A DNA stretch of 64,000 nucleotides from Chlorobiaceae bacterium (GTDB lineage Bacteria > Bacteroidota > Ignavibacteria > UBA10030 > SZUA-254): the NCBI GenBank assembly GCA_013824245.1, contig PNNN01000011.1, forward strand, positions 43,396-107,395. Direction: 5' to 3'. Each line of letters begins with the position of its first letter. Position 1 is the stretch's first letter. The notes beneath the pieces are model-generated. The model was not told the DNA's origin. It worked only from the letters and a program-made list of their open reading frames with translations, and made no database searches. Position numbers and translations under genes: made by a program. Shown here piece after piece: positions 18,654-54,301 of this stretch.

Positions 18654-20150
18654 ATGTATAGATACTCAATATCATTTCTGCTGACTTTCTTTGTAATTAC
18701 TAGTGTTTCACTATCCCAGACATCGCCTTCAACAGGGTTAGTGCGAGAATCTCAGGATTCGAATTTCCAGCAATTCATTAACCGTGTGAATGCCGCCGCC
18801 TCGCAGGATCGAAGCGCAATTGTCGATAGCTTCATGCTGGCGGTTCCTGCGTTCCCGTTCATTGAAGATCCGGTAGCGCATTTTATTTATCGCGGAAATG
18901 TAACAAGCGTAAATGTTCCCGGCGATGCTAACGGATGGAGCAGCAGCGGATATCCGATGACAAAACTCTCCACTACAGATTTCTGGTATACTTCTCAGGT
19001 GTTCGAGAGCGATGCACGTCTCGATTATAAATTTATTCTCAACAGTTCATCATGGATTCTCGATCCGCGCAATCCGCATACTGTATCGGGCGGATTCGGT
19101 CCGAACTCCGAGCTTGCCATGCCGCAATATGTTCAGCCGTGGGAGATTCAATACGATTCCACCGTCCCGCACGGTCGCATCGAGTCAAGAACTATTTTCA
19201 GTAATTATCGTTCGGCAACGTACAGTCTGAATGTTTATTTGCCGCCTGATTATCGTAGCGTTGGTCAGCCTTATCCAGTTGTTTATTTTCAGGACGGTTC
19301 GGAATATATCAACTTAGGAAAAACGAAAAACGTTATCGATAACCTCATCGGATATTTTTATATTCAAGATATAATTGCGGTTTTTGTCACACCGCTCAAC
19401 CGCAACGAAGAATATGCCGGTTCATTGCGTGATCAGTATATGCAATTTTTCGTTTATGAACTTGTGCCGTTCATCGACACTCTTTATAACACGAATAAAG
19501 CCCGGCATGCAAGAGCAGTTATAGGAGATTCGTACGGCGGGAATATTTCGGCTCTTATATCTTATAATCATCCCGGTATATTCGGTAATTGCGGATTACA
19601 TTCCGGTGCATTTCAACCTAACAATTACGAAGCATTCAACCTCATTGTAAACGGTGTGAATAAAAAAGATTCGATCAGATATTTTTCTGTCTGGGGAACT
19701 TATGAAAATCCCCTAACTCAAAATATGCGTGCGTTCAAGGATTCTCTTTTAAAAAAAGGATACGTTTTCGGTTGGCAGGAAAGACATGAGGGTCATAGCT
19801 GGGGCCTCTGGCGCGCGACAACCGATTTGATACTGCGACATTTTTTCGGATATCCTTCCGGTGTTTCTGAAATAAATAATCATCCGGTTGAGATTAAGCT
19901 CGATCAGAATTATCCAAATCCGTTTAATCCGTCGACTAATTTCGGATTTCGGATTGTTGATTTCGGATTTGTAACGCTAAAGATATTTGATCTGCTGGGA
20001 CGTGAAGTGGCAACTTTAGTTAACGAAACGAAACAGCCCGGTGAATACAAGGTGAAGTGGAATGCAGAAGGAGTGTCGAGCGGAGTGTATTTGTACCGAC
20101 TGCAGGTGGGAGGTTTCTCGGTGACGAAGAAGTTGTTGATGGTGAGATAA
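18654..20150 (+). CDS. secreted esterase (alpha/beta hydrolase, GDSYGG serine motif) with T9SS C-terminal sorting domain
   Basis: Signal peptide, esterase-like core with GxSxG (IGDSYGGN), and a C-terminal Por/T9SS CTD (NYPNPFNPST...GVYLYRLQVGGFSVTKKLLMVR). Confidence 0.7.
   Translation: MYRYSISFLLTFFVITSVSLSQTSPSTGLVRESQDSNFQQFINRVNAAASQDRSAIVDSFMLAVPAFPFIEDPVAHFIYRGNVTSVNVPGDANGWSSSGYPMTKLSTTDFWYTSQVFESDARLDYKFILNSSSWILDPRNPHTVSGGFGPNSELAMPQYVQPWEIQYDSTVPHGRIESRTIFSNYRSATYSLNVYLPPDYRSVGQPYPVVYFQDGSEYINLGKTKNVIDNLIGYFYIQDIIAVFVTPLNRNEEYAGSLRDQYMQFFVYELVPFIDTLYNTNKARHARAVIGDSYGGNISALISYNHPGIFGNCGLHSGAFQPNNYEAFNLIVNGVNKKDSIRYFSVWGTYENPLTQNMRAFKDSLLKKGYVFGWQERHEGHSWGLWRATTDLILRHFFGYPSGVSEINNHPVEIKLDQNYPNPFNPSTNFGFRIVDFGFVTLKIFDLLGREVATLVNETKQPGEYKVKWNAEGVSSGVYLYRLQVGGFSVTKKLLMVR
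20078..20150 (+). repeat. direct repeat copy 1 (T9SS CTD-coding 3' end)
   Basis: 73 bp, about 94% identical to 20817-20889 (4 mismatches). Confidence 0.85.
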
Positions 20151-25968: not shown

Positions 25969-26862
25969 TTACTTCACAAGCAACATCTTCTTAACCTGCG
26001 TAAAAGTTTTACTTGGATCGCTCACGCTTACCGCCTCTAACTTGTAGAAATATACTCCACTTGCAGCATCATTCGCATTCCAAGTTGCCGACTTGATTCC
26101 TGCTTGTTGAATTTCATCTGTGAGTAAAGCAACTTGCTGGCCAAGCACGGTATAGATTTTTAATTTCACTTGGCTGTTGAACGGTAATTGATATTTAATT
26201 GATGTTGTTGGGTTAAATGGGTTGGGATAGTTTTGGTGAAGAGAGAAATTAGTTGGAGCTGAAGAATATACCGATTCGATATCATCGATGATTTTACAAC
26301 CATATTTATATATATAGAATGCTCCAAAATATGGATGGCTATCAATTGGAATATTTAATTCCAAGCTGTCGGTTTTAAACATATTAATATTTGTCCCTTG
26401 CAAATTGCCTGCCCCAACAAGAAACATGCTGTCACAACGCTCCCTTAAATAACTAGAATCCGGCCACCGAAATACCCATTTTGAATACTCAGGGGTGAAG
26501 GGAGTTTCTCCAAATCCTAAGAAGAATGTATCTTTCTGAGCATTATTGGGCGGTATACTTCGGATATCGTAGTACATTAAACCACCACCAAAACAATTAA
26601 TTCGTCCGGGAATATTTTTCCAGACAAAATCGCATATATCGGGCGGACATTCTCTTTCTATAAATGTCGGATTCAAACTATCAATACAAAAAGTTGCATT
26701 GATATGATTACCGAACACCATCCTGTGTAGTAATGCACTTGTAGCATAGTATCCAGTTCCGGTCAGCCGAATTTCTGATGTTAATTGCGCTCGTGTCATG
26801 AATGTAGTTAACGTAATGGCTGCAAACGCCAACCATAGCCAATGATAAAATCGGATATTCAT
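25969..26862 (-). CDS. secreted T9SS substrate of unknown function (paralog 1)
   Basis: Signal peptide. C-terminal Por CTD: QNYPNPFNPTTSIKYQL...GVYFYKLEAVSVSDPSKTFTQVKKMLLVK. Confidence 0.6.
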   Translation of the reverse strand: MNIRFYHWLWLAFAAITLTTFMTRAQLTSEIRLTGTGYYATSALLHRMVFGNHINATFCIDSLNPTFIERECPPDICDFVWKNIPGRINCFGGGLMYYDIRSIPPNNAQKDTFFLGFGETPFTPEYSKWVFRWPDSSYLRERCDSMFLVGAGNLQGTNINMFKTDSLELNIPIDSHPYFGAFYIYKYGCKIIDDIESVYSSAPTNFSLHQNYPNPFNPTTSIKYQLPFNSQVKLKIYTVLGQQVALLTDEIQQAGIKSATWNANDAASGVYFYKLEAVSVSDPSKTFTQVKKMLLVK

Positions 26863-26876
26863 AATTTATTTCCTCC

Positions 26877-27803
26877 TTATTTTATTAAAATCATCTTACG
26901 TACCTGTGAAAATATCTTGCTCGGATCGCTCACACTCACAGCTTCTAACTTGTAGAAATATACTCCGCTTGCTGCATCGTTCGCATACCATGTTGCCGAC
27001 TTGAATCCGGCTTGTTGAATTTCATCTGTAAGCAAAGCTATTTGCTCGCCAAGCACATTATAGATTTTTAATTTCACTTGGCTATTGAACGGCAATTGAT
27101 ATTTTATTGATGTTGTTGGGTTGAATGGGTTGGGATAGTTTTGATATAAGCCAATTATCAATGGTGTATTCAGAAAGTTTTCTTTTACACCACTTTCACA
27201 ATCTATTATTGAATAAGCTCCTTGTTTAATAATATGGAGTATGCTCATTCCGGAATCTCCTGCAGCATGAACAATAAATTGCTGTTGTTTGAACATATCG
27301 ATTTTGGGAATGTGACCTGAAGTATCGACAAGAAACATGCTATCGCATCGGCATCCTAAATAAACACTATTGGGCCATGAAAAAATCACATCGGCATCAG
27401 GTGCTTGCTGATTCACGAAATTCAATACAAATGTATCGCGTTGCGTGAAATCATTTAATGGTCTGAAGTCATAAGTTAATAATCCGTTGCCCCAGTTTGC
27501 TCCAGTCCATGGGGGTCTCCAAACAACAAATAAATCTGGTGGAGGCGGTGGAGATTCGCGTTCGATTATGGTTGAATTTATGGAATCTAATTGACTTAAA
27601 TTGAAACCGTTTGTGGCGCCAATTGCATTACCGAAGATATTTGTGTAGGGACGGGATCCTTGGTTATCCTCAACTTTTATCCAAAATTCTATCGGTACTT
27701 GAGTAAATGAAGTTTCTATATTCAGAATAGTACAAAATGCTATCCACATCATTAATTTTACAGATAAAACTTTCATACTACCTCCATTTGAAAAAGTTAT
27801 CAA
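26877..27803 (-). CDS. secreted T9SS substrate of unknown function (paralog 2; probable true start MKVLS at about 27776)
   Basis: Same architecture as 25969-26862. The last roughly 85 codons are near-identical at the DNA level, while the N-terminal domains have diverged (shared RCDSMFLV motif). Confidence 0.6.
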   Translation of the reverse strand: MITFSNGGSMKVLSVKLMMWIAFCTILNIETSFTQVPIEFWIKVEDNQGSRPYTNIFGNAIGATNGFNLSQLDSINSTIIERESPPPPPDLFVVWRPPWTGANWGNGLLTYDFRPLNDFTQRDTFVLNFVNQQAPDADVIFSWPNSVYLGCRCDSMFLVDTSGHIPKIDMFKQQQFIVHAAGDSGMSILHIIKQGAYSIIDCESGVKENFLNTPLIIGLYQNYPNPFNPTTSIKYQLPFNSQVKLKIYNVLGEQIALLTDEIQQAGFKSATWYANDAASGVYFYKLEAVSVSDPSKIFSQVRKMILIK

Positions 27804-28077: not shown

Positions 28078-29064
<987 letters not shown>

Positions 29065-29104
29065 ATCGTCATTAGTTAATAGTCATTAGTCAATCGTCAT
29101 TTGG
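29065..29104 (+). repeat. heptad tandem array (GTCATTn)x5 = inverted copy of the nAnTGAC heptad family
   Basis: ATCGTCATTAGTTAATAGTCATTAGTCAATCGTCATTTGG forms an imperfect inverted repeat with 29502-29536. Confidence 0.7.
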
Positions 29105-29129
29105 AAAATAATTAAAGGAGGAAAAATTT

Positions 29130-29507
29130 ATGACAGTTGAATTGGAAAAACTTGAAGTGTATCAGCTTGCGGAATCGTTGGCAGATTTGGTGTGGGATAT
29201 TTGTATCGGCTGGGAATGGTTTGCGAAAGATACAATCGGTAAGCAGTTGGTAAAAGCGGCAGATTCTGTAGGTGCAAACATTGCAGAAGGTTATGGGCGT
29301 TATGCCTTTAAAGAGAATATCCATTTTTGCTGCTATGCCCGTGGATCTTTAATGGAAGTAAAACATTTTTTAAGAAGAGCGATGCAAAGAAAATTATTGA
29401 GTACCGAGCAAACAAAAAGTATTAAAAATATTTTACAACCTTTGGCTCCGAAATTGAACGCGTACATCCGTTCTATTAAAGCTGAACTCAGCAAATCCCC
29501 AAAATGA
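29130..29507 (+). CDS. four-helix-bundle protein (23S rRNA intervening-sequence-type protein)
   Basis: MTVELEKLEVYQLAESLADLVWDI...QLVKAADSVGANIAEGYGRY...ARGSLMEVKHFLRRA is the signature of the four-helix-bundle (IVS) family. It has a strong GGAGG RBS. Confidence 0.8.
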   Translation: MTVELEKLEVYQLAESLADLVWDICIGWEWFAKDTIGKQLVKAADSVGANIAEGYGRYAFKENIHFCCYARGSLMEVKHFLRRAMQRKLLSTEQTKSIKNILQPLAPKLNAYIRSIKAELSKSPK

Positions 29508-29536
29508 CAACTGACAATTAACAAATGACATTTTAC
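29502..29536 (+). repeat. heptad tandem array (nAnTGAC)x5
   Basis: AAATGAC AACTGAC AATTAAC AAATGAC ATTTTAC. The first unit contains the stop codon of the four-helix-bundle gene. Confidence 0.7.
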
Positions 29537-29584
29537 TTAAATAACCAAAACTCAAAATTTAACATCTAAGCAGTATTAATCAAC

Positions 29585-30460
29585 TTGGATACCACTGAGC
29601 TAATAAAAAAAGTCCGAAAGATCGAGATCCGAACAAAAGGTTTGGTAAATCAAATCTTTTCAGGTGAATACCATAGCGTGTTCAAAGGAAGAGGTATGTC
29701 TTTCAGCGAAGTGCGAGAATATCAGTTCGGTGATGATATACGCACAATTGACTGGAACGTGTCGGCTCGTTTCAATCATCCATATGTGAAGATATACGAA
29801 GAAGAGCGCGAACTTACCGTCATGCTAGTGGTCGATGTCAGCGGTTCGGGTGAGTTTGGCACTGTCCGTCAGATGAAGAAAGATATTGCCGCTGAGCTTT
29901 GTGCTGTGCTTGCGTTTTCTGCGCTTCAAAACAACGATAAGGTAGGAGTAATTTTCTTCAGCGATATCATTGAAAAATTTATTCCCCCTAAAAAAGGGAG
30001 AACCCATGTGCTTCGAATCGTACGCGAGCTTCTTGATTTTCAACCTTCTAATCGCGGGACCAAAATCTCCGAGGGCTTACGTTATCTCACAAGCGCGATT
30101 AAGAAAAGAAGTATTGCATTCTTAATTTCCGATTTTCTTGACGAAGGATATGATGACGCGCTCAAAATCGCCGCGCGCAAACACGATCTTATCGGTATCA
30201 GACTGTTCGATCCTCGTGAATCAAATATGGCGCGCGTTGGATTGATGAGAGTTGTTGACGCTGAGACTGGCGAGTCGGTTTGGGTAGATACATCTGACCG
30301 CAGGGTTATTCAGAGATATGAAAGATGGTGGAGTGATCGTCAGGTAGAACGCATTAAACTATTTCGCCGCAGCGGAGTGGATGGAATAGATATTCGTATC
30401 GATCAATCTTATATAAATCCATTGATGAATTTCTTCAAAGCGAGGGAGAAGAGATGGTAG
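29585..30460 (+). CDS. DUF58 domain protein (Bat operon)
   Basis: EYHSVFKGRGMSFSEVREYQFGDDIRTIDWNVSAR is the DUF58 signature, followed by a vWA-like fold. Confidence 0.85.
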   Translation: MDTTELIKKVRKIEIRTKGLVNQIFSGEYHSVFKGRGMSFSEVREYQFGDDIRTIDWNVSARFNHPYVKIYEEERELTVMLVVDVSGSGEFGTVRQMKKDIAAELCAVLAFSALQNNDKVGVIFFSDIIEKFIPPKKGRTHVLRIVRELLDFQPSNRGTKISEGLRYLTSAIKKRSIAFLISDFLDEGYDDALKIAARKHDLIGIRLFDPRESNMARVGLMRVVDAETGESVWVDTSDRRVIQRYERWWSDRQVERIKLFRRSGVDGIDIRIDQSYINPLMNFFKAREKRW

Positions 30461-31518
30461 ATAAAATGAAATCCGAAATCCGAAATCCGAAATCCGAAAT
30501 CAAAACTTCGGTTAGAATTTGGAATTATAAAAATTCCGATTTATTTCGGAATTCGATATTCGTATTTAGGGTTTTATTAGTTGTTAGTTTCATAATTCTA
30601 TCAAATCTGTTCTGTTATTCTCAGGATGTAAGAGCTACTGCGAAGGTCGATTCCAACCATATCATGATCGGTGATTGGTTCAAACTTCATATTGAAGTTG
30701 AGCATCCAAGTAATGTTACTCTGTCGATCCCGCCATTGCCCGATTCATTGAACGGTTTTGAAATTGTTAAGCGCGAAGAACCTGTAATAAAACAAATCGA
30801 TCAGCGAACACAAAAGATTCAGGATTTTATCGTTACATCATTTGATTCTGGAATTCATATTATTCCCGCAATCGTTGTTCACTATACACGGGCAGGTGAT
30901 ACTACCAAATATTTGATCGAAACATCACCCATCATTATGAATGTTGGAACCGTTGCCGTCGATACTTCTCAAGATATAAAAGACGTTAAGCCGCCTCTAT
31001 CGGTTCCAATTACGTTTGCCGATATACTTCCATATCTGCTTGTACTCATTGGAGTTGGAGGAGTAATATGGCTTACACGATATGTTATAAGAAAACGTAA
31101 ACGAGGTGAACCATTAATTCCCGAAGCGCCATCACGACCCGCAAACGAGTTAGCTATTGAAGCATTACGCTCTCTCGAATCTGAAAAACTTTGGCAGCGT
31201 GGTAAATTGAAAGACTTTCATTCTCAACTTACAGATATTGTTCGTTTGTACATTGAAAGGCGATTCAAGATACTCGCGATGGAATCGACAACTGATGAAA
31301 TATTGGATGCTTTCGGAAAAGAGACTATTAAGAACAATTCCAAAGATGAATTAAAAGAAATATTGATACGTGCCGATCTTGTCAAGTTCGCAAAGTTTCA
31401 ACCGGTTGCCGAGGAGAACGAGAAAAGTTTAGCGCTGGGATATAAATTTGTTGAAGATACCTGGCAAGAAAAAGTAGAACCTATTCAAATGAAATCAACG
31501 GAAGAGGTAACAGCGTGA
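30454..31518 (+). CDS. hypothetical membrane protein of the Bat operon
   Basis: It sits at the conserved position between the DUF58 gene and batA. It has a signal/TM segment and a second TM helix mid-protein. The 5' end contains the (GAAATCC)n heptad array. Confidence 0.5.
   Translation: MVDKMKSEIRNPKSEIKTSVRIWNYKNSDLFRNSIFVFRVLLVVSFIILSNLFCYSQDVRATAKVDSNHIMIGDWFKLHIEVEHPSNVTLSIPPLPDSLNGFEIVKREEPVIKQIDQRTQKIQDFIVTSFDSGIHIIPAIVVHYTRAGDTTKYLIETSPIIMNVGTVAVDTSQDIKDVKPPLSVPITFADILPYLLVLIGVGGVIWLTRYVIRKRKRGEPLIPEAPSRPANELAIEALRSLESEKLWQRGKLKDFHSQLTDIVRLYIERRFKILAMESTTDEILDAFGKETIKNNSKDELKEILIRADLVKFAKFQPVAEENEKSLALGYKFVEDTWQEKVEPIQMKSTEEVTA
30468..30501 (+). repeat. (GAAATCC) x about 4.9 tandem heptanucleotide repeat
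   Basis: Perfect tandem copies immediately after the DUF58 stop and inside the annotated 5' end of the next ORF. Confidence 0.9.
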
Positions 31519-32498
31519 CTTTTGCCAATCCTGAATATTTCTACTTGCTTCTTTTCTTGCCGCTGATGATATACTGGTATTGGAAGAAACAAGAGCAGCA
31601 AATTGTAGAATTACAGGTATCTACGATAAAAGTATTCCAAACCGTACCAAGGAGCTGGCGCCAGCGTTTTCGCCATCTTTTATTTTTATTCAGAGTTTTG
31701 ACTATTGTCTTTCTAACGGTCGCCCTTGCGAGACCTCAATCGACATCGAAAGGTGAAAATGTTTCGACGGAAGGAATTGATATCGTATTGGTCAACGATA
31801 TATCGGGAAGTATGCTTGCAGAAGATTTTAGACCCAATCGAATTGAAGCGGCAAAGAAAACAGCTATCGATTTTATAGATGGACGCCTTACAGATAGAAT
31901 TGCTCTCGTGGTTTTTTCAGGGGAAAGTTTTACTCAATGCCCGTTAACGCTTGACCATGCAGTTCTTAAAAGTTTACTTTCTGAAATTAAAAGCGGAATG
32001 ATTGAAGATGGCACCGCGATAGGAATGGGATTAGCCACGGCTGTCAGTCGGCTTAAAGACAGCAAAGCAAAAAGCAAAGTGATCGTTCTTCTGACCGACG
32101 GAATAAATAACAAAGGTTTTATTGATCCGATGACCGCTGCGGGAATTGCACAAGAGTTCTGCATCCGCGTTTACACAATCGGTGTTGGGACAATCGGAAT
32201 GGCGCCGTATCCGGTACAAACACCTTTCGGAACACAGTATCAAAACGTTCCGGTCGAAATTGATGAAAAATTACTGCAGCAGATTGCCGATCAGACAGGT
32301 GGAAAATACTATCGCGCAACAGATAATAAAAAATTAAAAGCCATTTACGATGAAATTGATCGGCTTGAAAAAACGAAGATTGAAGTAACTCAATTCCGGC
32401 GGCATAAAGAAGAATATTATACCGCTGCATTTTTTGCAATATTGTTTTTATTTTTAGAATTAATTTTTTCACAAACTATTTTTAGAAAGATACCTTGA
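31515..32498 (+). CDS. batA: BatA (vWA domain membrane protein)
   Basis: N-terminal TM helices. The vWA MIDAS motif is DISGSM...TAIG...LLTDG. Confidence 0.8.
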   Translation: MTFANPEYFYLLLFLPLMIYWYWKKQEQQIVELQVSTIKVFQTVPRSWRQRFRHLLFLFRVLTIVFLTVALARPQSTSKGENVSTEGIDIVLVNDISGSMLAEDFRPNRIEAAKKTAIDFIDGRLTDRIALVVFSGESFTQCPLTLDHAVLKSLLSEIKSGMIEDGTAIGMGLATAVSRLKDSKAKSKVIVLLTDGINNKGFIDPMTAAGIAQEFCIRVYTIGVGTIGMAPYPVQTPFGTQYQNVPVEIDEKLLQQIADQTGGKYYRATDNKKLKAIYDEIDRLEKTKIEVTQFRRHKEEYYTAAFFAILFLFLELIFSQTIFRKIP

Positions 32499-32666
32499 CA
32501 CCATCCCTGGGGCTGACTAAAATGTTCTCTCGATGCACGATTTCTCTGAAATCGTACTTGAGAACCGGCATACGTAGCTGGTTTTCGAGTGTTCTTCGAC
32601 GACAAGTCGAAGAATGTAACGAGAAAACAAACTTATTGGTCAACCCCAGCCGGAGGTGAGGTCATT

Positions 32667-33704
32667 ATGATTCGTTTCGCACATACCGGATACCTGTACG
32701 CGCTCGCACTTTTACCTGTGATTCTTGTTATATTCTACTGGTCGCTGAGAATGCGGAAGAAAAATTTAGAACGATTCGGCAATCTTTCGTTGCTGGATAA
32801 TCTGATGCCGGCAATCAGTAAGTACAAAAAATCGACAAAATTCTTTACAGCTTTTATCGCGTTCGCATTTATTATTTTTGGCATCGCTAATCCTCAAATC
32901 GGAACCAAGATGGAAGAAGTTAAACGCGCGGGTGTGGATATCATGATTGCGTTGGACGTTTCCAACAGCATGAAAGCGGAAGACATCAAACCAAACCGAC
33001 TTGAAAGCGCGAAGCAAGAAATATCGCACATGCTTGATAAATTTCAGAACGATCGTCTCGGATTGATTGTCTTTGCTGGAGACAGTTATCTTCAATTACC
33101 TCTTACTACCGATTACTCAGCCGCACGTCTCATACTTAGCACTATCGATGTGGATGTTGTTCCCATTCCGGGAACAGCCATCGGATCGGCGATTAAGCTT
33201 GCGATGAAATCGTTCGCTTCGGGTGAGAAGAAGCATAAAGTGATTATCATTATTTCCGACGGCGAAAATCATGAAGACGATGCCATAACAGCCGCGAAAG
33301 ATGCGTTGGAGGATGGAGTTGTTGTTCACACTGTCGGCATGGGATCGCCCGATGGAGTGCCGATTCCGGTTTACCAGAACGGAATTCAGGTAGGGTTTAG
33401 AAAAGATCAGGATGGGAATACAGTTGTAACCAAACTTGATGAGCAGGCGTTAAGGCAAATAGCCGAAGCCGGTGGCGGAATGTATATCAGGGCAACAAAT
33501 CAGCAAGATGAGCTTGACACGATTTTCAAAGATATACAAACGATGGAGAAGAAAGAGTTCGGCGCAAAAATTTTTACGGAATATGAAGACAGGTTCCAGT
33601 ATTTTCTTGGAATCGCTCTGCTATTATTGTTAATTGAATATTTTATATCGGAACGCAAAAACCGATGGTTCGCAAAATGGAAATTCTTCAAAGAACGAAA
33701 ATGA
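32667..33704 (+). CDS. batB: BatB (vWA domain membrane protein)
   Basis: MIRFAHTGYLYALALLPV start follows a GGAGGTGAGG RBS. MIDAS motif: DVSNSM...TAIG...IIISDGENH. Confidence 0.8.
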   Translation: MIRFAHTGYLYALALLPVILVIFYWSLRMRKKNLERFGNLSLLDNLMPAISKYKKSTKFFTAFIAFAFIIFGIANPQIGTKMEEVKRAGVDIMIALDVSNSMKAEDIKPNRLESAKQEISHMLDKFQNDRLGLIVFAGDSYLQLPLTTDYSAARLILSTIDVDVVPIPGTAIGSAIKLAMKSFASGEKKHKVIIIISDGENHEDDAITAAKDALEDGVVVHTVGMGSPDGVPIPVYQNGIQVGFRKDQDGNTVVTKLDEQALRQIAEAGGGMYIRATNQQDELDTIFKDIQTMEKKEFGAKIFTEYEDRFQYFLGIALLLLLIEYFISERKNRWFAKWKFFKERK

Positions 33705-34405
33705 AAATATTTATTACATTAATTATATTACTACTATCGATTGGTGGGATGAACGCCCAGTCGGAACGCTCCTTAATCCGCGAAGGGAACCAATTGTATA
33801 AAAAGGATAAATATTCCGATGCTGAGATAAGTTACCGAAAAGCGCTTGAGAAAAATAAAGAATTAAAGCAGGGAGCGTTCAATCTTGGAGACGCGTTATA
33901 CAAACAAGAAAGATATGGTGAAGCCGCGGAACAATACAGGATTGCCGCTCAAAATCATAAAGATGAAGAAACAAAAGCACAAGCGCTCCATAATCTTGGA
34001 AATGCTTTGGTAAAAGAACAAAAATTTCCCGACGGTATTGCGGCATATAAAGAAGCCCTCAAAATGAATCCAAAAGATATAGACACCAAGTACAACCTTG
34101 AGTATGCTAAGCGGATGCTTCAGCAGCAACAACAACAACAAAAACAACAAAAACAGGATCAAAAGAAAGATCAGAAGCAGGACAAAAAAGAGGAGCAGAA
34201 GCAAGATCAGCAAAATCAAGATCAACAACAACAAAAAGATAAACAAGATCAGCAGAAACAACAGCAAGCCCAGCAGAAAAAGCAACAGATATCAAAGCAG
34301 GATGCTGAAAGAATTCTCGAAGCTCTAAAAAACGAAGAAAAAGATGTTCAGAAAAAATTGAAAAAGAAAGCCCCAGCCAAAGTGCGAGTTGAAAAGGATT
34401 GGTAA
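33701..34405 (+). CDS. batC: BatC (TPR protein with Q/K-rich low-complexity tail)
   Basis: ATGA overlap with the batB stop. It has a signal peptide, TPR repeats, then a QQQQQQKQQKQDQKKDQK... region. Confidence 0.7.
   Translation: MKIFITLIILLLSIGGMNAQSERSLIREGNQLYKKDKYSDAEISYRKALEKNKELKQGAFNLGDALYKQERYGEAAEQYRIAAQNHKDEETKAQALHNLGNALVKEQKFPDGIAAYKEALKMNPKDIDTKYNLEYAKRMLQQQQQQQKQQKQDQKKDQKQDKKEEQKQDQQNQDQQQQKDKQDQQKQQQAQQKKQQISKQDAERILEALKNEEKDVQKKLKKKAPAKVRVEKDW
34121..34296 (+). repeat. coding simple-sequence region (CAA/CAG/AAA-rich) encoding a Gln/Lys/Asp-rich tract in BatC
   Basis: About 175 bp of cagcagcaacaacaacaacaaaaacaacaaaaacag... Confidence 0.8.
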
Positions 34406-34407
34406 TT

Positions 34408-34493
34408 TGAGATTTCGGATTTCAGATCGTAGATTTCGGATTATATAACAAGAGCCAAAAACAAATGACTAATAACAATTGACGAATGACATA
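34408..34493 (+). repeat. two adjacent heptad arrays: (GATTTCG-like)x5, then (nAnTGAC)x4 ending in the batD ATG
   Basis: GATTTCGGATTTCAGATCGTAGATTTCGGATT ... AAATGAC TAATAAC AATTGAC GAATGAC AT. Confidence 0.7.
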
Positions 34494-36330
34494 TTCTATT
34501 TACATAAAAAAGACTGTATTGTTTTTTATCATTTTATTCTCGATTGCCAAAGTTGCTATTGCCCAAGATGCTTCATTCAATGCTTCGGTGGATAGAAATA
34601 AAATTGGAATGGGAGAGCAGATTGAAGTGACGTTTACACTTAACGGTTCGAGCGGTGGTAGTAATTTTCGTCCGCCGTCGTTCAACGATTTCCAGACACT
34701 CTCGGGTCCTAATCAATCCACCAATATGCAGTTTATCAATGGTGCAATGTCGGCGTCGGTTTCATACAGTTATATATTGCAACCACGAGCTGAAGGTAAA
34801 TTTGTTATCGGTCCCGCATTTATCAATCACAACGGGAAACAACTTCAAACGCAACCTATCACTATTGAAGTAAGCAAAGGTGCGCCACAGTCCAAAACGC
34901 AATCTCAATCTAAACAATCCCAACAAGATTCTGATATCGGCAAACAGATTGGTGATAATCTGTTTCTCAAAGTATCCATCGATAAATCGCGGGTGTTTCA
35001 GGGAGAGCAGATTACCGCAATTTATAAAATATACACCCGCGTCAATATTGCTAATTATAATCTTTCAAAAGTCCCATCGCTTACCGGATTTTGGAGCGAG
35101 GAACTCGATGTCCCTAAGCAGGTTCAACTTTCTACGGAAGTTGTGAACGGCAAACAATACAGAGTCGGCATTTTAAAAAAGGTTGCTCTCTTTCCGCAAC
35201 GCAGCGGCACGCTTTCAATCGATCCGATGGAGATAGAGTGTGTGGTGCAAGTGCAGGGCAAGCGTCGCTCTAACGATATATTCGATCAGTTTTTCAATGA
35301 TCCTTTCTTCGGCGGTGTTTCTAACGTTAACTATAAGGTGAAAAACCAACCTGTGGCTATTACTGTACTGCCGCTGCCGAATGATAATGTGCCTCCGGGG
35401 TTTTCCGGCGGAGTGGGAAAGTTCACCATGGAAGCATGGCTCGATAAATCTCAAACTAAAACAAATGAACCTGTTACTCTTAAGGTGAAAATATCAGGTA
35501 GAGGAAATCTCAAGCTGCTTGACGCACCGATAATAAATGTATCGACAGATATAGAAAAATATGATCCGAAAAATTCCGACAACATAACCAAGCAAGGCGA
35601 TCAGATCACCGGCAGCCGCACATTTGAGTTTTTATTGATACCGAGACACCCGGGTGAACAAAAAATTCCATCATTCCCGTATACATATTTCGATATAGAA
35701 AAGAAAAATTATGTTACACTGAAAAGCCCTGAATTTACAATCGCGGTAGAAAAAGGGAATGATATTCAATCTGCTTATGCTGCCGGAGTGAGCAAAGAGG
35801 ATGTGAAACTTCTCGGTGAAGATATCAGGTTTATTAAGAGTGGTAATATTTCCATTCATCGAAAAGGAGAGACGTTTACCGGTAGTGTGCTCTTTTTTGT
35901 TCTGTTAGTAAGCCCGATTGTCATATTTACAGGATTTCTTATCTACCTTAAAAGACGCAAGAAAATTTTGGGAAATGTTACACTCGTTAGAAATAGAAAA
36001 GCACAAAAGATTGCACGTAAGCGGCTTGCCGACGCTAAAAAATTTCTTGATGAGAAAAAGAAAGAAGAATTTTATTCCGAAATATCGCGCGCGTTATGGG
36101 GTTATATTGCAGACAAACTCGGGATACCGCCGTCCGATTTGTCTATTGATCTTGTTCGATCATCCCTTGAAAATCATATCATCAACGTAGAAGTGATAAC
36201 GAGATTTGTTAATATAATCGAAATGTGTGAGTTCGCCCGATTTGCCCCTGCAACCGATTCTGTTCAGATGGATCAGGTGTACAAAGAGACCGTTGAATTG
36301 ATCTCAACAATAGAGGAGCAATTGCGATGA
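34486..36330 (+). CDS. batD: BatD (oxygen-tolerance protein)
   Basis: 614 aa with a signal peptide, a large periplasmic domain and a C-terminal TM helix plus cytoplasmic tail. This is the characteristic BatD architecture. Confidence 0.75.
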   Translation: MTYSIYIKKTVLFFIILFSIAKVAIAQDASFNASVDRNKIGMGEQIEVTFTLNGSSGGSNFRPPSFNDFQTLSGPNQSTNMQFINGAMSASVSYSYILQPRAEGKFVIGPAFINHNGKQLQTQPITIEVSKGAPQSKTQSQSKQSQQDSDIGKQIGDNLFLKVSIDKSRVFQGEQITAIYKIYTRVNIANYNLSKVPSLTGFWSEELDVPKQVQLSTEVVNGKQYRVGILKKVALFPQRSGTLSIDPMEIECVVQVQGKRRSNDIFDQFFNDPFFGGVSNVNYKVKNQPVAITVLPLPNDNVPPGFSGGVGKFTMEAWLDKSQTKTNEPVTLKVKISGRGNLKLLDAPIINVSTDIEKYDPKNSDNITKQGDQITGSRTFEFLLIPRHPGEQKIPSFPYTYFDIEKKNYVTLKSPEFTIAVEKGNDIQSAYAAGVSKEDVKLLGEDIRFIKSGNISIHRKGETFTGSVLFFVLLVSPIVIFTGFLIYLKRRKKILGNVTLVRNRKAQKIARKRLADAKKFLDEKKKEEFYSEISRALWGYIADKLGIPPSDLSIDLVRSSLENHIINVEVITRFVNIIEMCEFARFAPATDSVQMDQVYKETVELISTIEEQLR

Positions 36331-37079: not shown

Positions 37080-37513
37080 TTTTTAGTTTTCTCGACCGAA
37101 TTATAATTGAAGATTCATTTCCGAAAGAATTTATTTACGCTCAGCATATAAAAGCGTATTTAGAGCTTTCTGAAAAATTAGCACAGAGTCACCCTGAACG
37201 TCTCGACTGAGCTTGACGAAGTCTTGTTTCAGGGTCTAAAATTGGATAGATTCCGAAACACCTGCCCGCCGCTTCGCTTTGGCAGGCGGGAGTTTGGAAT
37301 GACTCTAATCTTTTCTAAATATTTCGGATGTTTGATTTAATAAAGATTTTAAGATACTTTAGCCGACAAACTTCATTCTTTTGACTTTAGGGTCTCAATT
37401 TCGTAACTTAAATCCGTAATTCTATTGAAAAACAGTCGAATCGTTGTTGTTAATCCGTCAATTAAGAAAAATGTACCAAGAACAAACAACTAAGAACCAA
37501 TAACCAATAATAA

Positions 37514-38524
37514 ATGACCATATTAGTAACAGGCGGATGCGGATTCATCGGCAGTAATTTTGTTAAGTATATGCTCGAAACTTATCCCGAAGATATAATA
37601 GTGAATTTCGATAAGCTGACATATGCCGGGAATCTTGAGAATTTACAGGATATTGAAAAAAATCCCAAATATCATTTCGTTAAGGGTGATATCTGCAATC
37701 GACTTGAAGTTGAAGATTGTATCAAGAAATTTAATACCGATGTTATCGTCAATTTCGCCGCGGAATCGCATGTTGATCGAAGTATTTTAGGACCTGCGGT
37801 TTTTATTGAAACAAATATTGCCGGAACAGGAATTCTTTTACAGGTTGCCAAAGAAATCGGCATTAAGAAATTCGTGCAGATTTCAACGGATGAAGTTTAC
37901 GGATCACTCGGCAACGATGGAAAATTCACCGAAACAACACCGCTTCATCCTAACAGTCCGTATTCTGCATCCAAAACATCCGCCGATTTGTTGGCGCTTG
38001 CGTACGAACATACATTTGGATTGCCTGTTGTAATTACACGCTGTTCTAATAATTACGGACCTTATCAATTTCCCGAAAAACTTTTACCGTTGATGATTGC
38101 CAACGCTTTCGATAATAAACCATTGCCTGTTTACGGTGACGGGATGAATATACGAGATTGGCTTTATGTAAAAGATCATTGCATCGCGATCGACGTAGCG
38201 CTTCGCGAAGGGAAAGTTGGAGAAGTTTATAATATCGGCGGTAATAACGAGTGGGCGAATATCAATATCATAAAATTATTATTGAAAATTATTAATAAGC
38301 CCGAGTCGCTTATTAAATATGTGAAAGACCGCCCAGGGCACGATCGTCGGTATGCGATTGATGCTTCGAAGATTGAAAAGGAACTCGGTTGGAAGCCGAG
38401 CGTAACTTTTGAAATCGGTTTGGAAAAAACTATAAAGTGGTACCTTGAAAACGAAAACTGGTGGCGACGAATAATCAGCGGAGAATATCAACAATATTAT
38501 CAGAAATTGTATGGGAACAGATAA
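37514..38524 (+). CDS. rfbB: dTDP-glucose 4,6-dehydratase
   Basis: MTILVTGGCGFIGSNF, YSASK, and an extended SDR with the RfbB signature. Confidence 0.95.
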   Translation: MTILVTGGCGFIGSNFVKYMLETYPEDIIVNFDKLTYAGNLENLQDIEKNPKYHFVKGDICNRLEVEDCIKKFNTDVIVNFAAESHVDRSILGPAVFIETNIAGTGILLQVAKEIGIKKFVQISTDEVYGSLGNDGKFTETTPLHPNSPYSASKTSADLLALAYEHTFGLPVVITRCSNNYGPYQFPEKLLPLMIANAFDNKPLPVYGDGMNIRDWLYVKDHCIAIDVALREGKVGEVYNIGGNNEWANINIIKLLLKIINKPESLIKYVKDRPGHDRRYAIDASKIEKELGWKPSVTFEIGLEKTIKWYLENENWWRRIISGEYQQYYQKLYGNR

Positions 38525-43104: not shown

Positions 43105-44628
43105 ATGAAAGGTTCTCTCGGTAAAAGTTCGTTAACTGGCATCGCTCAATTTATTATTAGTACTCTGTTGGTATTTATTGCAATACCGATTTTCGTAAGA
43201 ATTCTAGGAACAGAAGCGTATGGAATATTTTCTCTCGTAGCTATAGTAGGTAGTGTTAACACGTTTGCAAATTTTGGACTCAATTCTTCTCTTGTTCGTT
43301 TTCTAGCTGAACAAGGGAAAACCAAAGAATCAGATCACGATATTATTATTACATTCATTATCTCAATAGTAATTCTTTGTCCTCTGACACTTGGTGGAAT
43401 TTTATTTCATAATAGCATTCTTGTTCATATTCTGAGTGTACCTATACAATTGCTCGGGGATGCAAGGTGGTTGTTTTTCTCGATGCTAATTGGAAATATT
43501 TTCATTCTTTTAGGGCAGGTATTCACTGCTATCTTGGACTCGCAGCAAAAGGTTTATTTAACGAACTTTTATCAAATGATTTATAATATCATATACTGGA
43601 GTACGATTTTAATAGCAATATCGTTTGGCTATTCGTTAAAGGGTGTTGCAATGGCTATGCTTATAGCTACGATAATATGGTTTAGCATAGTGACTATCAG
43701 CGCACTTCGATCATGGGGAAAGCTTTCGTTCCGGGGTTTAAGAAATGACGCAATGCGAATAATTGGCAAACAATTGTCCTATGGGTTGAAAATCTATACA
43801 GCTGGTATTCTTGGTTTTTTTCATGAACCCATTGCAAAGATACTGGTATCTCATTTCATCGGTGTAACGGAAGTTGGATTTTTTGATATAGGATTGCGAG
43901 TAAAGAATCAAGTTGTCGGTTTGTTTAACAAGCTACTAACCCCCCTATATCCAGCAATATCTAAACTTACACAAACCGATAATTTTAAATTTTTGGTACA
44001 TGATATAGAACAAAAAATTTTTCTTGCGGTGATACCTATAACCGGAATAATAATATTGACGGCAGATCCAATAATCAATCTCATTTTTTATTCACAGGCA
44101 GATATTATCTCTATAACTGTCATTTATATTGTTTCAGCATATTTATTGGGTAGCACAACTGTGATTCCGATGTATTTATTTTTAATGGCTAAGGGACATC
44201 CGTCTAAGATTATAATCGTCCAAGGACTGAACGCAGTCGTCAATGCGATCTTTTTCTTTCTCTTTCTACCTTGGCTTGGATATTATGCTATTGTTGTTTC
44301 AACCGTAGCTTCCATATCTTCATCGTTCGGTTTGCTAATATCTTATCAGAAGCGATATTTGGATAGTCTTATTTTCGACTCTAAGAAGCAACTAGCGGCA
44401 GTCATTGTATCTTTTATTATTGCATTTTCGCTCGGTTACTATACTACCATAATTATCGAATCTATTATGTGGAAGATCATTACTCCATCAATAATTGTTG
44501 TGCTAATGACGATTATTACATATAGATACTTTGCATTACTAAATCACGCTGATATCAATCGATATTTTGGAGAAAATACCGCGCTTTCTAAATTATCTGT
44601 ACGGATTTTGTGTAAATATTATAGATAA
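43105..44628 (+). CDS. wzx: oligosaccharide flippase (Wzx, MOP superfamily)
   Basis: MKGSLGKSSLTGIAQFIISTLL...IPIFVRILGTEAYGIF is the conserved Wzx N-terminus. There are about 12-14 TM helices. Confidence 0.75.
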   Translation: MKGSLGKSSLTGIAQFIISTLLVFIAIPIFVRILGTEAYGIFSLVAIVGSVNTFANFGLNSSLVRFLAEQGKTKESDHDIIITFIISIVILCPLTLGGILFHNSILVHILSVPIQLLGDARWLFFSMLIGNIFILLGQVFTAILDSQQKVYLTNFYQMIYNIIYWSTILIAISFGYSLKGVAMAMLIATIIWFSIVTISALRSWGKLSFRGLRNDAMRIIGKQLSYGLKIYTAGILGFFHEPIAKILVSHFIGVTEVGFFDIGLRVKNQVVGLFNKLLTPLYPAISKLTQTDNFKFLVHDIEQKIFLAVIPITGIIILTADPIINLIFYSQADIISITVIYIVSAYLLGSTTVIPMYLFLMAKGHPSKIIIVQGLNAVVNAIFFFLFLPWLGYYAIVVSTVASISSSFGLLISYQKRYLDSLIFDSKKQLAAVIVSFIIAFSLGYYTTIIIESIMWKIITPSIIVVLMTIITYRYFALLNHADINRYFGENTALSKLSVRILCKYYR

Positions 44629-52637: not shown

Positions 52638-54301
52638 TGAATATTCGATATTCGATATTCGATGTTCGATTTTTGAGCAGGTTAACAGTATGGTTATGGT
52701 TGGTGATTATCTCGATTAGTACCGTTTCGTTATCCCAGATCGAAAACGTTCCTGTGAATAATCAGGTGTATGAATTTCTTGACAGAATGGGAGTGAAGGG
52801 AATTCTCCCACTCTATAGCAACACGATGATTCCGATATCTCGAAAAGAAGTCGCGGAATTATTGATGAGTATCGATCATAAGCGTAATGGACTGAATAAT
52901 ATCGAGATTGAATTTATCGATAAGTTTAAGATCGAATTCATGCACGAGATTGATCCTGCCAAAGAAAATCCGGCTGTTCTTTTTCGCGGAAGTTCTTTCG
53001 GCGATCTTCTTTCCGAGAAAGAAAAATATCTTTACGATTTCAGAGATTCAACAATATCTTTTTATATGGAATTTATTGGTTCGCTGGAACAGCGGCAAAT
53101 TTCGGGTGATAGTTACGGTTCGGCACATTCCACATTCGAGGAACATGGAGGCAGAATTCGCGGAACTATCAAGAATCGGTTAGGATATTATTTGCAAGCG
53201 ACAAATGGAACGATGTATGGCAACAGAGAATTTGCGTTATCGGATCCACGATTGAAAGGGAATGTGAAGCTCAACGATCTTGATTCGCCATATTTCGATT
53301 TTACAGAGGCATATCTTCGTGCCGATCTTGATTGGTTCAATCTCGAGTTCGGTCGAGAGCATAATATGATTGGAACCGGATATTCCGACCGCCTGCTTCT
53401 TTCGGCTAATGCGCCTGTATTCGACTTTTTGAAATTAGATTTCCAGTACAAATCGTTTAGATTTTTGTTCATGCAGGGCTCGCTTGTCGATCCAATGTCG
53501 TCATCGAATAAATATCTCGCACTTCATCGCGCTCAGTTTTCCCTTTTTGATATAATGAATGTCGGAATTTCGGAAATGATAATATACCAGCGTAATTCGG
53601 TTGATTTTGCTTATATGAATCCGATTAATTTCTATAAATCATCGGAACATTCGCTTCGCGACAAGGATAATGCTTTCTTAAATTTCGATCTTGAAATATT
53701 TCCGTTCCCCGGATATAAATGTTACGGTACATGGCTCATCGATGATATGGATTTTAAAAAAATGGGAACCGGTTGGTGGGGAAACGAGTTTGGCTGGCAG
53801 GGCGGTCTTATGGTAGCTGATCTTGCCGGCTTTGAAAATATCGATGGCTATGTTGAGTACACTCGTTTAGAACCGTATGTATACAGTAACCGACTCAATG
53901 GCAATTCTTTTACGAATAACTCCATTGGCTTGGGTCATCATCTGCAACCAAATTCCAATGAACTGGTAGTGCAATTTGCTTACCGCCCGATGAAACAACT
54001 GCGTACCTGGGTTAGTTTTGGAACATCGCGCCACGGAGAAAACAAAGTTATTGATGGAGTGGTTTTAGAAAATTACGGTGGCGATATAGTTCAAGGTCAC
54101 CGTCAGTTTGATTCAGAAACAGCAAAGTTTTTAGACGGCGATTTGGTAACAGCAAATCGTTTACAATTGAAAGCAATTTATGAACCGATAACGAATATTT
54201 TCATTTCAGGTCTGTATGAATTTCAACGGATTAAGAAAGATGTTCTCAGTATTACAGAAAACAATCATTACGGTTCAATAAGATTATCGGTAGAATATTA
54301 A
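52637..54301 (+). CDS. wzi: capsule assembly Wzi-like outer-membrane protein
   Basis: Signal peptide, then the NQVYEFLDRMGVKGIL motif characteristic of the Wzi N-terminus. The body is large, beta-rich and rich in Tyr/Gly/Asn. The ATG overlaps the wbaP stop (ATGA). Confidence 0.55.
   Translation: MNIRYSIFDVRFLSRLTVWLWLVIISISTVSLSQIENVPVNNQVYEFLDRMGVKGILPLYSNTMIPISRKEVAELLMSIDHKRNGLNNIEIEFIDKFKIEFMHEIDPAKENPAVLFRGSSFGDLLSEKEKYLYDFRDSTISFYMEFIGSLEQRQISGDSYGSAHSTFEEHGGRIRGTIKNRLGYYLQATNGTMYGNREFALSDPRLKGNVKLNDLDSPYFDFTEAYLRADLDWFNLEFGREHNMIGTGYSDRLLLSANAPVFDFLKLDFQYKSFRFLFMQGSLVDPMSSSNKYLALHRAQFSLFDIMNVGISEMIIYQRNSVDFAYMNPINFYKSSEHSLRDKDNAFLNFDLEIFPFPGYKCYGTWLIDDMDFKKMGTGWWGNEFGWQGGLMVADLAGFENIDGYVEYTRLEPYVYSNRLNGNSFTNNSIGLGHHLQPNSNELVVQFAYRPMKQLRTWVSFGTSRHGENKVIDGVVLENYGGDIVQGHRQFDSETAKFLDGDLVTANRLQLKAIYEPITNIFISGLYEFQRIKKDVLSITENNHYGSIRLSVEY
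52641..52675 (+). repeat. (ATATTCG)-like x5 heptanucleotide tandem array at the wbaP/wzi junction
   Basis: ATATTCG ATATTCG ATATTCG ATGTTCG ATTTTTG sits inside the first codons of wzi. Confidence 0.8.

Follow-up and report, generated by a model that had tools for sequence, protein, structure and literature searches.

A PF05635 four-helix-bundle gene between convergent heptamer arrays in a Bat-type operon

The moxR-DUF58 spacer and its contents

The subject of this analysis is a small cassette, consisting of a four-helix-bundle (4HB) gene of the PF05635 family and two convergent arrays of seven-nucleotide repeats, in a Bat-type operon of a Chlorobiaceae bacterium (assembly GCA_013824245.1). The window referred to throughout is the whole 64-kb stretch analysed, positions 43,396 to 107,395 of contig PNNN01000011.1. 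The operon spans 28078-36330 (+ strand) and comprises moxR (AAA_3), a DUF58 gene, a hypothetical membrane protein gene, and the genes for BatA, BatB, a TPR protein and BatD; its Pfam domains (AAA_3, DUF58, BatA with VWA twice, TPR for BatC, and BatD) all run in one direction in the Bat (Bacteroides aerotolerance) order, and the gene order is identical in two related loci, L002 and L003. Between the upstream host gene moxR (28078..29064, +; PF07726, E = 3.8e-67; orthologues 86-94% identical in loci L001-L004) and the downstream DUF58/vWA gene (29585..30460, +; PF01882, E = 3.9e-79), which has a TTG start at 29585, lies a spacer of 520 nt that the cassette fills entirely, in sense orientation. 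The 4HB gene is the only open reading frame (ORF) with family support in this spacer, and a scan of the + strand between the two host genes gave no promoter-like or terminator-like site.

The original prediction, made by a model from the sequence alone, placed here a 125-aa protein of the family encoded in intervening sequences (IVSs) of 23S rRNA, and profile searches and structure modelling bear this out. The product of the 4HB gene (29130..29507, +) is a basic protein (isoelectric point 9.15) of the PF05635/TIGR02436 family (S23p, IVS protein or Avd-like), scoring 87.4 bits against PF05635 (cut-off 33.8) and 81.8 bits against TIGR02436 (cut-off 24). Its AlphaFold2 model has a pLDDT of 90.6 and helices at residues 9-26, 30-55, 64-86 and 92-122, and Foldseek matched it to XCC0516 (2GSC; template-modelling score, TM, 0.84/0.92), to Avd (4DWL/8UBE; TM 0.72-0.83) and to BT_0352 (2RLD; TM about 0.7). 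The structural relatives 2GSC, 2RLD and 4DWL have five chains each, and the window protein, modelled as a monomer only, is probably also pentameric. An exact-protein look-up found no record of it, a PHROGs search gave no match, and PADLOC returned one weak match only, associated with DRT (defence-associated reverse transcriptase; E = 0.028). Because dN/dS is 0.07-0.15 among the window gene and its L001-L004 orthologues, with dS ranging from about 0.5 up to saturation, the protein is under purifying selection. A Shine-Dalgarno-like site, AAAGGAGG (29114..29121, +), precedes the ATG by 8 nt; it follows closely on the 3' side of the 5' arm, in what is predicted to be the loop, and has purine-rich counterparts in L001, L003 and L004.

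The 5' arm (29064..29104, +), abutted by the moxR stop codon TAA (29062-29064), consists of about five G+T-rich heptamers (TCGTCAT, TAGTTAA, TAGTCAT, TAGTCAA and TCGTCAT, followed by TTGG) with the consensus GTCATTN. Its reverse complement, the 3' arm (29499..29537, +), is made up of A+C-rich heptamers (AAATGAC, AACTGAC, AATTAAC, AAATGAC, ATTTTAC) and overlaps the final three codons and the stop codon of the 4HB gene. Tandem Repeats Finder (TRF) reported period-7/14 arrays at 29064-29101 (GTCATTA, 4.9 copies), listed also as period 7 at 29068-29101, and at 29502-29530 (AAATGAC, 4.1 copies). The arms make up a 31-nt inverted repeat of 81% complementarity whose halves are separated by 412 nt, in agreement with the imperfect inverted heptad copies originally proposed. 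A non-consensus unit, GTTAAT/ATTAAC, occurs in both arms. The cassette flanks hold the only GTCA cluster of the window and one of its two TGAC clusters, the other lying at 34466.

In folds of a 511-nt RNA, both minimum-energy and centroid, 29062-29104 pairs with 29499-29535 through 29 Watson-Crick pairs, leaving the ORF in the loop; the flanks thus do pair in silico, a point on which the original prediction had been staked. The energy of the arm-arm duplex is -23.4 kcal/mol, which corresponds to z = -5.7 when shuffled versions of the 3' arm serve as the comparison. Beyond the stem, an A+C-rich leader with weak 7-nt periodicity (ACCAAAA, CTCAAAA, TTTAACA; 29538..29584, +), recognized from sequence and alignment, runs up to the DUF58 TTG start; its sequence is not conserved in L002 and L003, where it is replaced by other heptamers (CAAAGTA) or by nothing. 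Rfam searches at gathering and E-value thresholds found no rRNA or other family in the window, no second copy of the cassette was found within its 64 kb, and there is no recombinase, transposase or nuclease in or adjoining the cassette.

The same junction in related loci

The four nearest homologues found (L001-L004; 92, 82, 73 and 59% protein identity) are all situated in the moxR-DUF58 spacer, each with GTCATTN-type arrays upstream and complementary arrays downstream, and a closing stem of 12-34 pairs is likewise predicted in their RNAs. Between the window and L003 the arrays are kept although dS exceeds 1.5, and since synonymous sites are thus saturated at these orthologous loci, the arrays have outlasted neutral sequence. 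The cassette is absent from loci L085-L088, whose MoxR proteins are 86-90% identical and whose moxR-DUF58 gaps measure only 11-38 nt; relatives with moxR directly before the DUF58 gene, the check originally suggested, therefore exist. Filled and empty junctions are interspersed in a neighbour-joining tree of MoxR. No target-site duplication was seen in the alignment of the filled/empty boundary, a result made tentative by the divergence of the spacers. Together, the conserved orthologous cassettes and the interspersed empty sites indicate that the cassette is old and vertically carried, not a recent insertion, and that it has been gained or lost several times.

A survey of 73 related moxR|DUF58 junctions from metagenomic loci (L084-L163) extended this comparison. 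Twenty-five are 45 nt long or less, 35 measure 46-260 nt and 13 contain a small gene, so that the statement that canonical Bat operons have nothing at this position is borne out only partly. Three of the 13 small genes represent distant 4HB lineages different from that of the window (L102/L108 and L112) and have matched heptamers of their own (GGGGATT in L108); at least three distinct 4HB lineages occupy the junction. The remaining ten junctions hold an unrelated small ORF without arrays, which in most of them has about 135 aa and a signal-like hydrophobic start (e.g., L110, L119, L121). Heptamer arrays are present at 12 of the 73 junctions and at 1 of 164 other spacers of the same loci (Fisher p = 3.6e-6), which makes the moxR|DUF58 junction a hot spot for them. 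Among the arrays at this junction are gene-less heptamer hairpins in L092, L147 and L163 that have the A+C-rich arm first, the reverse of all 40 gene-bearing cassettes whose polarity could be read (see below); these hairpins are therefore not simple relics of internal deletion.

The recurrence of several 4HB lineages at one junction, and the conservation of the cassette in L001-L004, could be taken to mean that the 4HB protein is an accessory of the Bat operon, acting as a partner or regulator of the MoxR/DUF58/BatA-D machinery. The distribution of the family makes this very improbable: MoxR adjoins only 4 of 83 family loci, equally close relatives lack the cassette, and other family members reside in unrelated operons such as accBC. 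As a separate observation on the locus, Cas4, a Y1 transposase, Cas1 and Cas2 precede moxR in the closest relative (L001, 1-3200), where the window has genes of type IX secretion system (T9SS) type. In the FLSHclust paper, '23S rRNA IVP' is listed among CRISPR-associated domains (Figure 1; PMC10910872).

Heptamer arrays across the family and the window

A family scan using one genome per species yielded 80 further 4HB loci, from Cyanobacteria, Bacteroidota, Ignavibacteria, Planctomycetota, Acidobacteriota, Verrucomicrobiota, Desulfobacterota and Chloroflexota. In the flanks of 86 4HB genes lag 7 is the only enriched period, the best lag-7 fraction averaging 0.80 in 5' flanks and 0.78 in 3' flanks as against 0.45 in random segments; a fraction of at least 0.8 is reached by 56 of the 86 5' flanks and 49 of the 86 3' flanks, and by 3% of random segments. 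An inverted-flank score of at least 13, the value of the window cassette, was obtained for 83% of 82 4HB genes versus 1.6% of 184 control genes taken from these loci (p = 6e-36). When the two arms of a gene are matched with each other the median score is 18, compared with 8 for arms taken from different loci, and paralogues of one genome carry different heptamers (L029/L033, L073/L078 and two genes of L050); the two arms therefore covary.

The arms share further features. Forty genes have clear arrays on both sides, and all of them have a G+T-rich 5' arm (mean 0.72) and an A+C-rich 3' arm (0.27); since this polarity looks alike whichever strand is read, it belongs to the inverted repeat as such. 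The heptamers have a family-wide skeleton, G-T-y-r-k-T-n, of which the window's GTCATTN is the archetype, and GT is found in 96% of consensus heptamers versus 74% expected. GTCATTG is equivalent to TTGGTCA, reported by Mazel et al. (1990) as the unit of STRR2, one of the cyanobacterial short tandemly repeated repetitive (STRR) sequences. Mismatches between arms are concentrated at heptad position 7 (33%, versus 2-7% at the G, T and T). The median 5' arm is 32 nt, about five heptamers, within a range of array lengths from 3 to more than 15 units; the 3' arm begins, as a median over the family, 6.5 nt ahead of the last base of the stop codon. Of 63 co-directional contexts, 56 have the cassette in sense to its neighbours, from which it is separated by medians of 85 and 54 nt.

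It might be supposed that heptamer arrays are slippage-prone simple repeats littering intergenic DNA and that a 4HB gene merely happens to lie between two of them. Heptamer over-representation has been ascribed to polymerase slippage (PMC4692102), 26% of the other spacers in 4HB loci also have heptamer arrays, and several unrelated arrays occur in the window. Coincidence is nevertheless strongly disfavoured, to the point of being barely credible, by the excess of matching inverted flanks at 4HB genes over controls, the uniform polarity of all 40 cassettes, the conservation of arrays at orthologous loci past synonymous saturation, and the concentration of heptamers at the moxR|DUF58 junction relative to other spacers.

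The survey also connects the family to repeats that have been described independently. XCC0516 (PDB 2GSC), of which a crystal structure exists, shares 23-24% identity with the window protein. In Xanthomonas, Dyella and Lysobacter (L165, L167, L170, L174, L176) its orthologues are placed between accB and accC, with GGGAATC-type arrays upstream and GATTCCC-type arrays downstream. These flanks are the convergent, quadruplex-forming GGGAATC repeats of Xanthomonas that were catalogued, without a link to XCC0516, by Rehm et al. 2015 (PMC4692102). In that account heptamer repeats are period-7 tandem intergenic arrays, often in convergent pairs. For Xanthomonas, 70-75 such pairs are on record. The published repeats (STRR, GGGAATC/GGGGATT, TAACTGA and those of Geobacter) resemble the window arrays in being period-7, tandem and intergenic, and differ in that the window arrays are matched arms around a PF05635 gene. 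No link to such a gene was made for the heptamers of Beggiatoa, Cyanobacteria and Bacteroidetes, including TAACTGA (PMC4679880), or for the heptanucleotide elements of Geobacter (PMC2700814), and a study of Nostoc heptamers postulated an unidentified heptamer-binding protein, again without reference to PF05635 (bioRxiv 10.1101/2022.06.06.494920). In searches of the openly accessible literature, a described PF05635-heptamer link was found only in the Coxiella IVS paper considered below; the PF05635 gene enclosed by convergent heptamer arrays, as a widespread unit, appears undescribed.

Gene-less arrays are found elsewhere in the window's Bat operon. The batC(TPR)|batD spacer (34405-34491) holds a GATTTCG-type array followed by an AAATGAC-type array (34460..34491, +; detected by TRF and as the TGAC cluster noted above) that lies upstream of and overlaps the batD start, with the ATG (34486) in its last heptamer; L002 carries both types at this junction. 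In RNAduplex calculations the 34460 array pairs with the cassette 5' arm at -26.9 kcal/mol, versus -23.4 kcal/mol for the arm's own partner, and might pair with that arm instead, both being on one operon transcript. The window has a single long inverted repeat, which joins 30455-30500 with 34405-34450 (46 nt, 74%, 3.9 kb apart). At 30455-30565 the region coding for the N-terminus of ORF 30454-31518 contains a perfect (GAAATCC)x5, with the complementary type (CGATTTATTTCGGAATTCGATATTCG) about 30 nt further on; the L002 orthologue, 25 codons shorter, has an array at the same place in opposite orientation (GGATTTC/GGATTTG). Coding N-termini are thus also entered by heptamer arrays, which can change orientation there. 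A+C-rich heptamers (ACCAAGA-type) at 37475-37515 run into the ATG at 37515 of a gene whose product begins MTILVTGG, a separate (ATATTCG)x4.3 array occupies 52641-52670, and (ATTTCGG)x4.6 at 19939-19970 lies inside a coding sequence, encoding ..NFGFRIVDFGF.. in a T9SS-type C-terminal sorting domain. Two larger repeats were also observed: a 267-nt repeat (85% identity) common to two tandem secreted paralogues with T9SS C-terminal domains (25969-27803, -), and a 77-nt repeat (94%) at 20074/20813.

An IVS-type model and the alternatives to it

In rRNA genes, 23S IVSs with an S23p ORF are known from Leptospira, Coxiella, Xanthomonas and Brucella, and to our knowledge no function has been assigned to that ORF since the early 1990s, the distant relative Avd apart. 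The Coxiella 23S IVS has three or four tandem GACAGAT units preceding the homologous S23p ORF, and RNase III cuts at the first of them (PMC4990558), so that the likeness to an IVS-bracketing stem drawn in the original prediction is apt. The window cassette and the rRNA IVS both have a PF05635 ORF in sense inside the host transcript and inverted flanks forming a stem, predicted in the present case; they differ in that the window host is a protein-coding operon and not helix 25 or 45 of 23S rRNA. The Coxiella ORF is, moreover, decaying and probably untranslated, whereas the window ORF is intact, has a strong Shine-Dalgarno site and is under purifying selection.

The reading adopted here, which we would put at about an even chance, is that the window cassette is a resident member of a widespread IVS type, a PF05635 gene lying between two convergent heptamer arrays, and that it acts through its RNA. 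The cassette would be transcribed within the Bat operon mRNA, and its G+U-rich 5' arm and A+C-rich 3' arm would close a stem of about 30-35 bp, built of 6-bp blocks with a mismatch-prone seventh position, around the ORF in the loop. By analogy with the homologous 23S rRNA cassettes, this stem is probably a substrate of RNase III, cleavage by which would excise the 4HB message from the polycistronic transcript. It is proposed that the operon would tolerate the cassette because the A+C-rich 3' side still gives the DUF58 gene an unstructured leader. More speculatively, the basic 4HB protein may bind heptamer stems as Avd binds an RNA stem-loop, and could in that way influence how its own transcript is processed, and perhaps also those bearing the other heptamer arrays of the operon.

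The analogy with Avd, the accessory protein of diversity-generating retroelements (DGRs; 4DWL, 8UBE), is one of fold, basic charge and arrangement, the Avd pentamer gripping an RNA stem-loop encoded beside its own gene. In the DGR ribonucleoprotein all five protomers hold the stem-loop by way of flipped-out bases between protomers (bioRxiv 10.1101/2023.10.23.563531). Avd differs in being only 9-13% identical to the window protein, and no heptamer arrays have been described for DGRs. Membership of the window gene in a DGR was considered and rejected: its neighbours encode MoxR and DUF58 proteins and no reverse transcriptase, and near it there is neither a template/variable repeat pair nor any direct repeat of at least 40 nt.

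Several results weigh against the RNA model. The energy of the arm duplex is not exceptional, being equalled by several unrelated window segments in an RNAduplex scan, and the region as a whole does not fold more stably than shuffled sequence (z = -0.13). One or both arrays are missing from 17% to 40% of family members. The Coxiella analogy is inexact, as the GACAGAT units there lie between the Shine-Dalgarno site and the ATG and are not G+T-rich. Across the family, sense-strand mismatches between arms show no excess of G:U (69, versus 85 A:C; p = 0.23), and the sense and antisense arm duplexes have equal energies; for these two reasons complementarity may be kept at the DNA level and not by selection on RNA pairs. 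Pairing alone also leaves the conserved G-T...T skeleton unexplained. Template switching at quasi-palindromes or some other process at the DNA level, or a factor that reads the sequence, may be involved.

One alternative places the arrays at the DNA level altogether, as terminal inverted repeats or hairpin ends of a mobile element that is moved or copied by a host or trans-acting enzyme, with the 4HB protein as a DNA-binding accessory and the gene-less arrays as relics or targets. The manner would be that of repetitive extragenic palindromic (REP) sequences and their associated tyrosine transposases (RAYTs; together, REPtrons) or of MITEs (miniature transposable elements with inverted repeats). 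It would account for the patchy presence of the cassette within one MoxR clade (filled in the window and L001-L004, 11-38 nt in L085-L088), for the presence of at least three 4HB lineages and many gene-less arrays at the same junction, for arm mismatches without RNA-type wobble bias, for a polarity symmetric on both strands, and for homologous cassettes in rRNA genes. REPtrons likewise consist of a small gene flanked by an inverted short repeat that is also scattered, gene-less, in intergenic regions; the cassette differs in having no HUH/Y1 nuclease and in having tandem heptamers that vary by locus in place of one conserved palindrome. Of the features of a transposable element or MITE, the cassette displays presence/absence polymorphism at one site among close relatives, and lacks a transposase of its own and ends conserved within one genome, those of L029/L033, L073/L078 and L050 being different; nor was a target-site duplication seen. 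Cassettes are also stable at orthologous sites over long divergence, and 4HB matches among phage and plasmid records came to none and one, respectively, the plasmid match being without arrays. On balance a mobile element of this kind is thought rather unlikely. The mobile or IVS-derived cassette captured in an operon, as originally proposed, accordingly stands in part: gene and arrays do behave as a unit that recurs in many phyla and is patchy among close relatives, but the unit is old, being orthologous in L001-L004 at 92-59% identity, and neither a recombinase nor a target-site duplication nor a second copy was found in the window. That it is 'IVS-derived' is unproven because nothing here shows the direction of descent, and the rRNA IVSs may equally be the special case.

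A second alternative makes the arrays protein-binding sites, at which the 4HB pentamer or another factor reads G-T...T on single-stranded RNA or on DNA, with the arrays regulating the flanking genes in their transcription or translation, and complementarity being a by-product of convergence. Consistent with it are the conservation of the G-T-y-r-k-T-n skeleton across phyla with its surplus of GT, the gene-less arrays lying directly on start codons (batD at 34486; 37475-37515), the heptamer-binding protein postulated for Nostoc, the RNA contacts made by all five Avd protomers, and the median 5' arm of about five heptamers. It is opposed by the occurrence of one heptamer with proteins 46% identical and of different heptamers with proteins 65-70% identical, by the match of a gene's own arms beyond the skeleton (as with GTTAAT/ATTAAC in the window), and by the variable array lengths, and is regarded as unlikely, slightly more so than the mobile element. 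A simple protein-heptamer code was rejected: the overall correlation is weak (Pearson 0.22) and strong only above 80% identity, among orthologues, and one heptamer occurs with proteins that are 46% identical.

Beyond the RNA model, which remains the preferred reading of the window cassette, there is a broader and more tentative proposal, one that we consider possible while expecting that it may well fail: that PF05635 pentamers and bacterial heptamer repeats are one system. The protein would read 7-nt-periodic G-T...T stems or arrays, and its gene would normally lie inside such a stem in host operons; dispersed heptamers (STRR, GGGAATC and TAACTGA, together with the arrays that hold no gene at moxR|DUF58 and batC|batD) would be targets or relics, and the 23S rRNA IVSs a special insertion site. 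We know of no mechanism or binding partner for the bacterial heptamer repeats, whether cyanobacterial STRR, Xanthomonas GGGAATC or others, and if the proposal is true, these unexplained repeats and the IVS protein, to which no function has been assigned, would share one answer.

In summary, the gene together with its convergent arrays is a unit conserved in eight or more phyla and found also around XCC0516, and such cassettes persist stably inside essential or conserved operons (accBC, Bat), which bears on the processing of operon mRNAs and on annotation, where heptamer arrays can be mistaken for other repeat classes. The worth of the finding lies in this general link between PF05635 and heptamer repeats and not in the single locus from which it was drawn.

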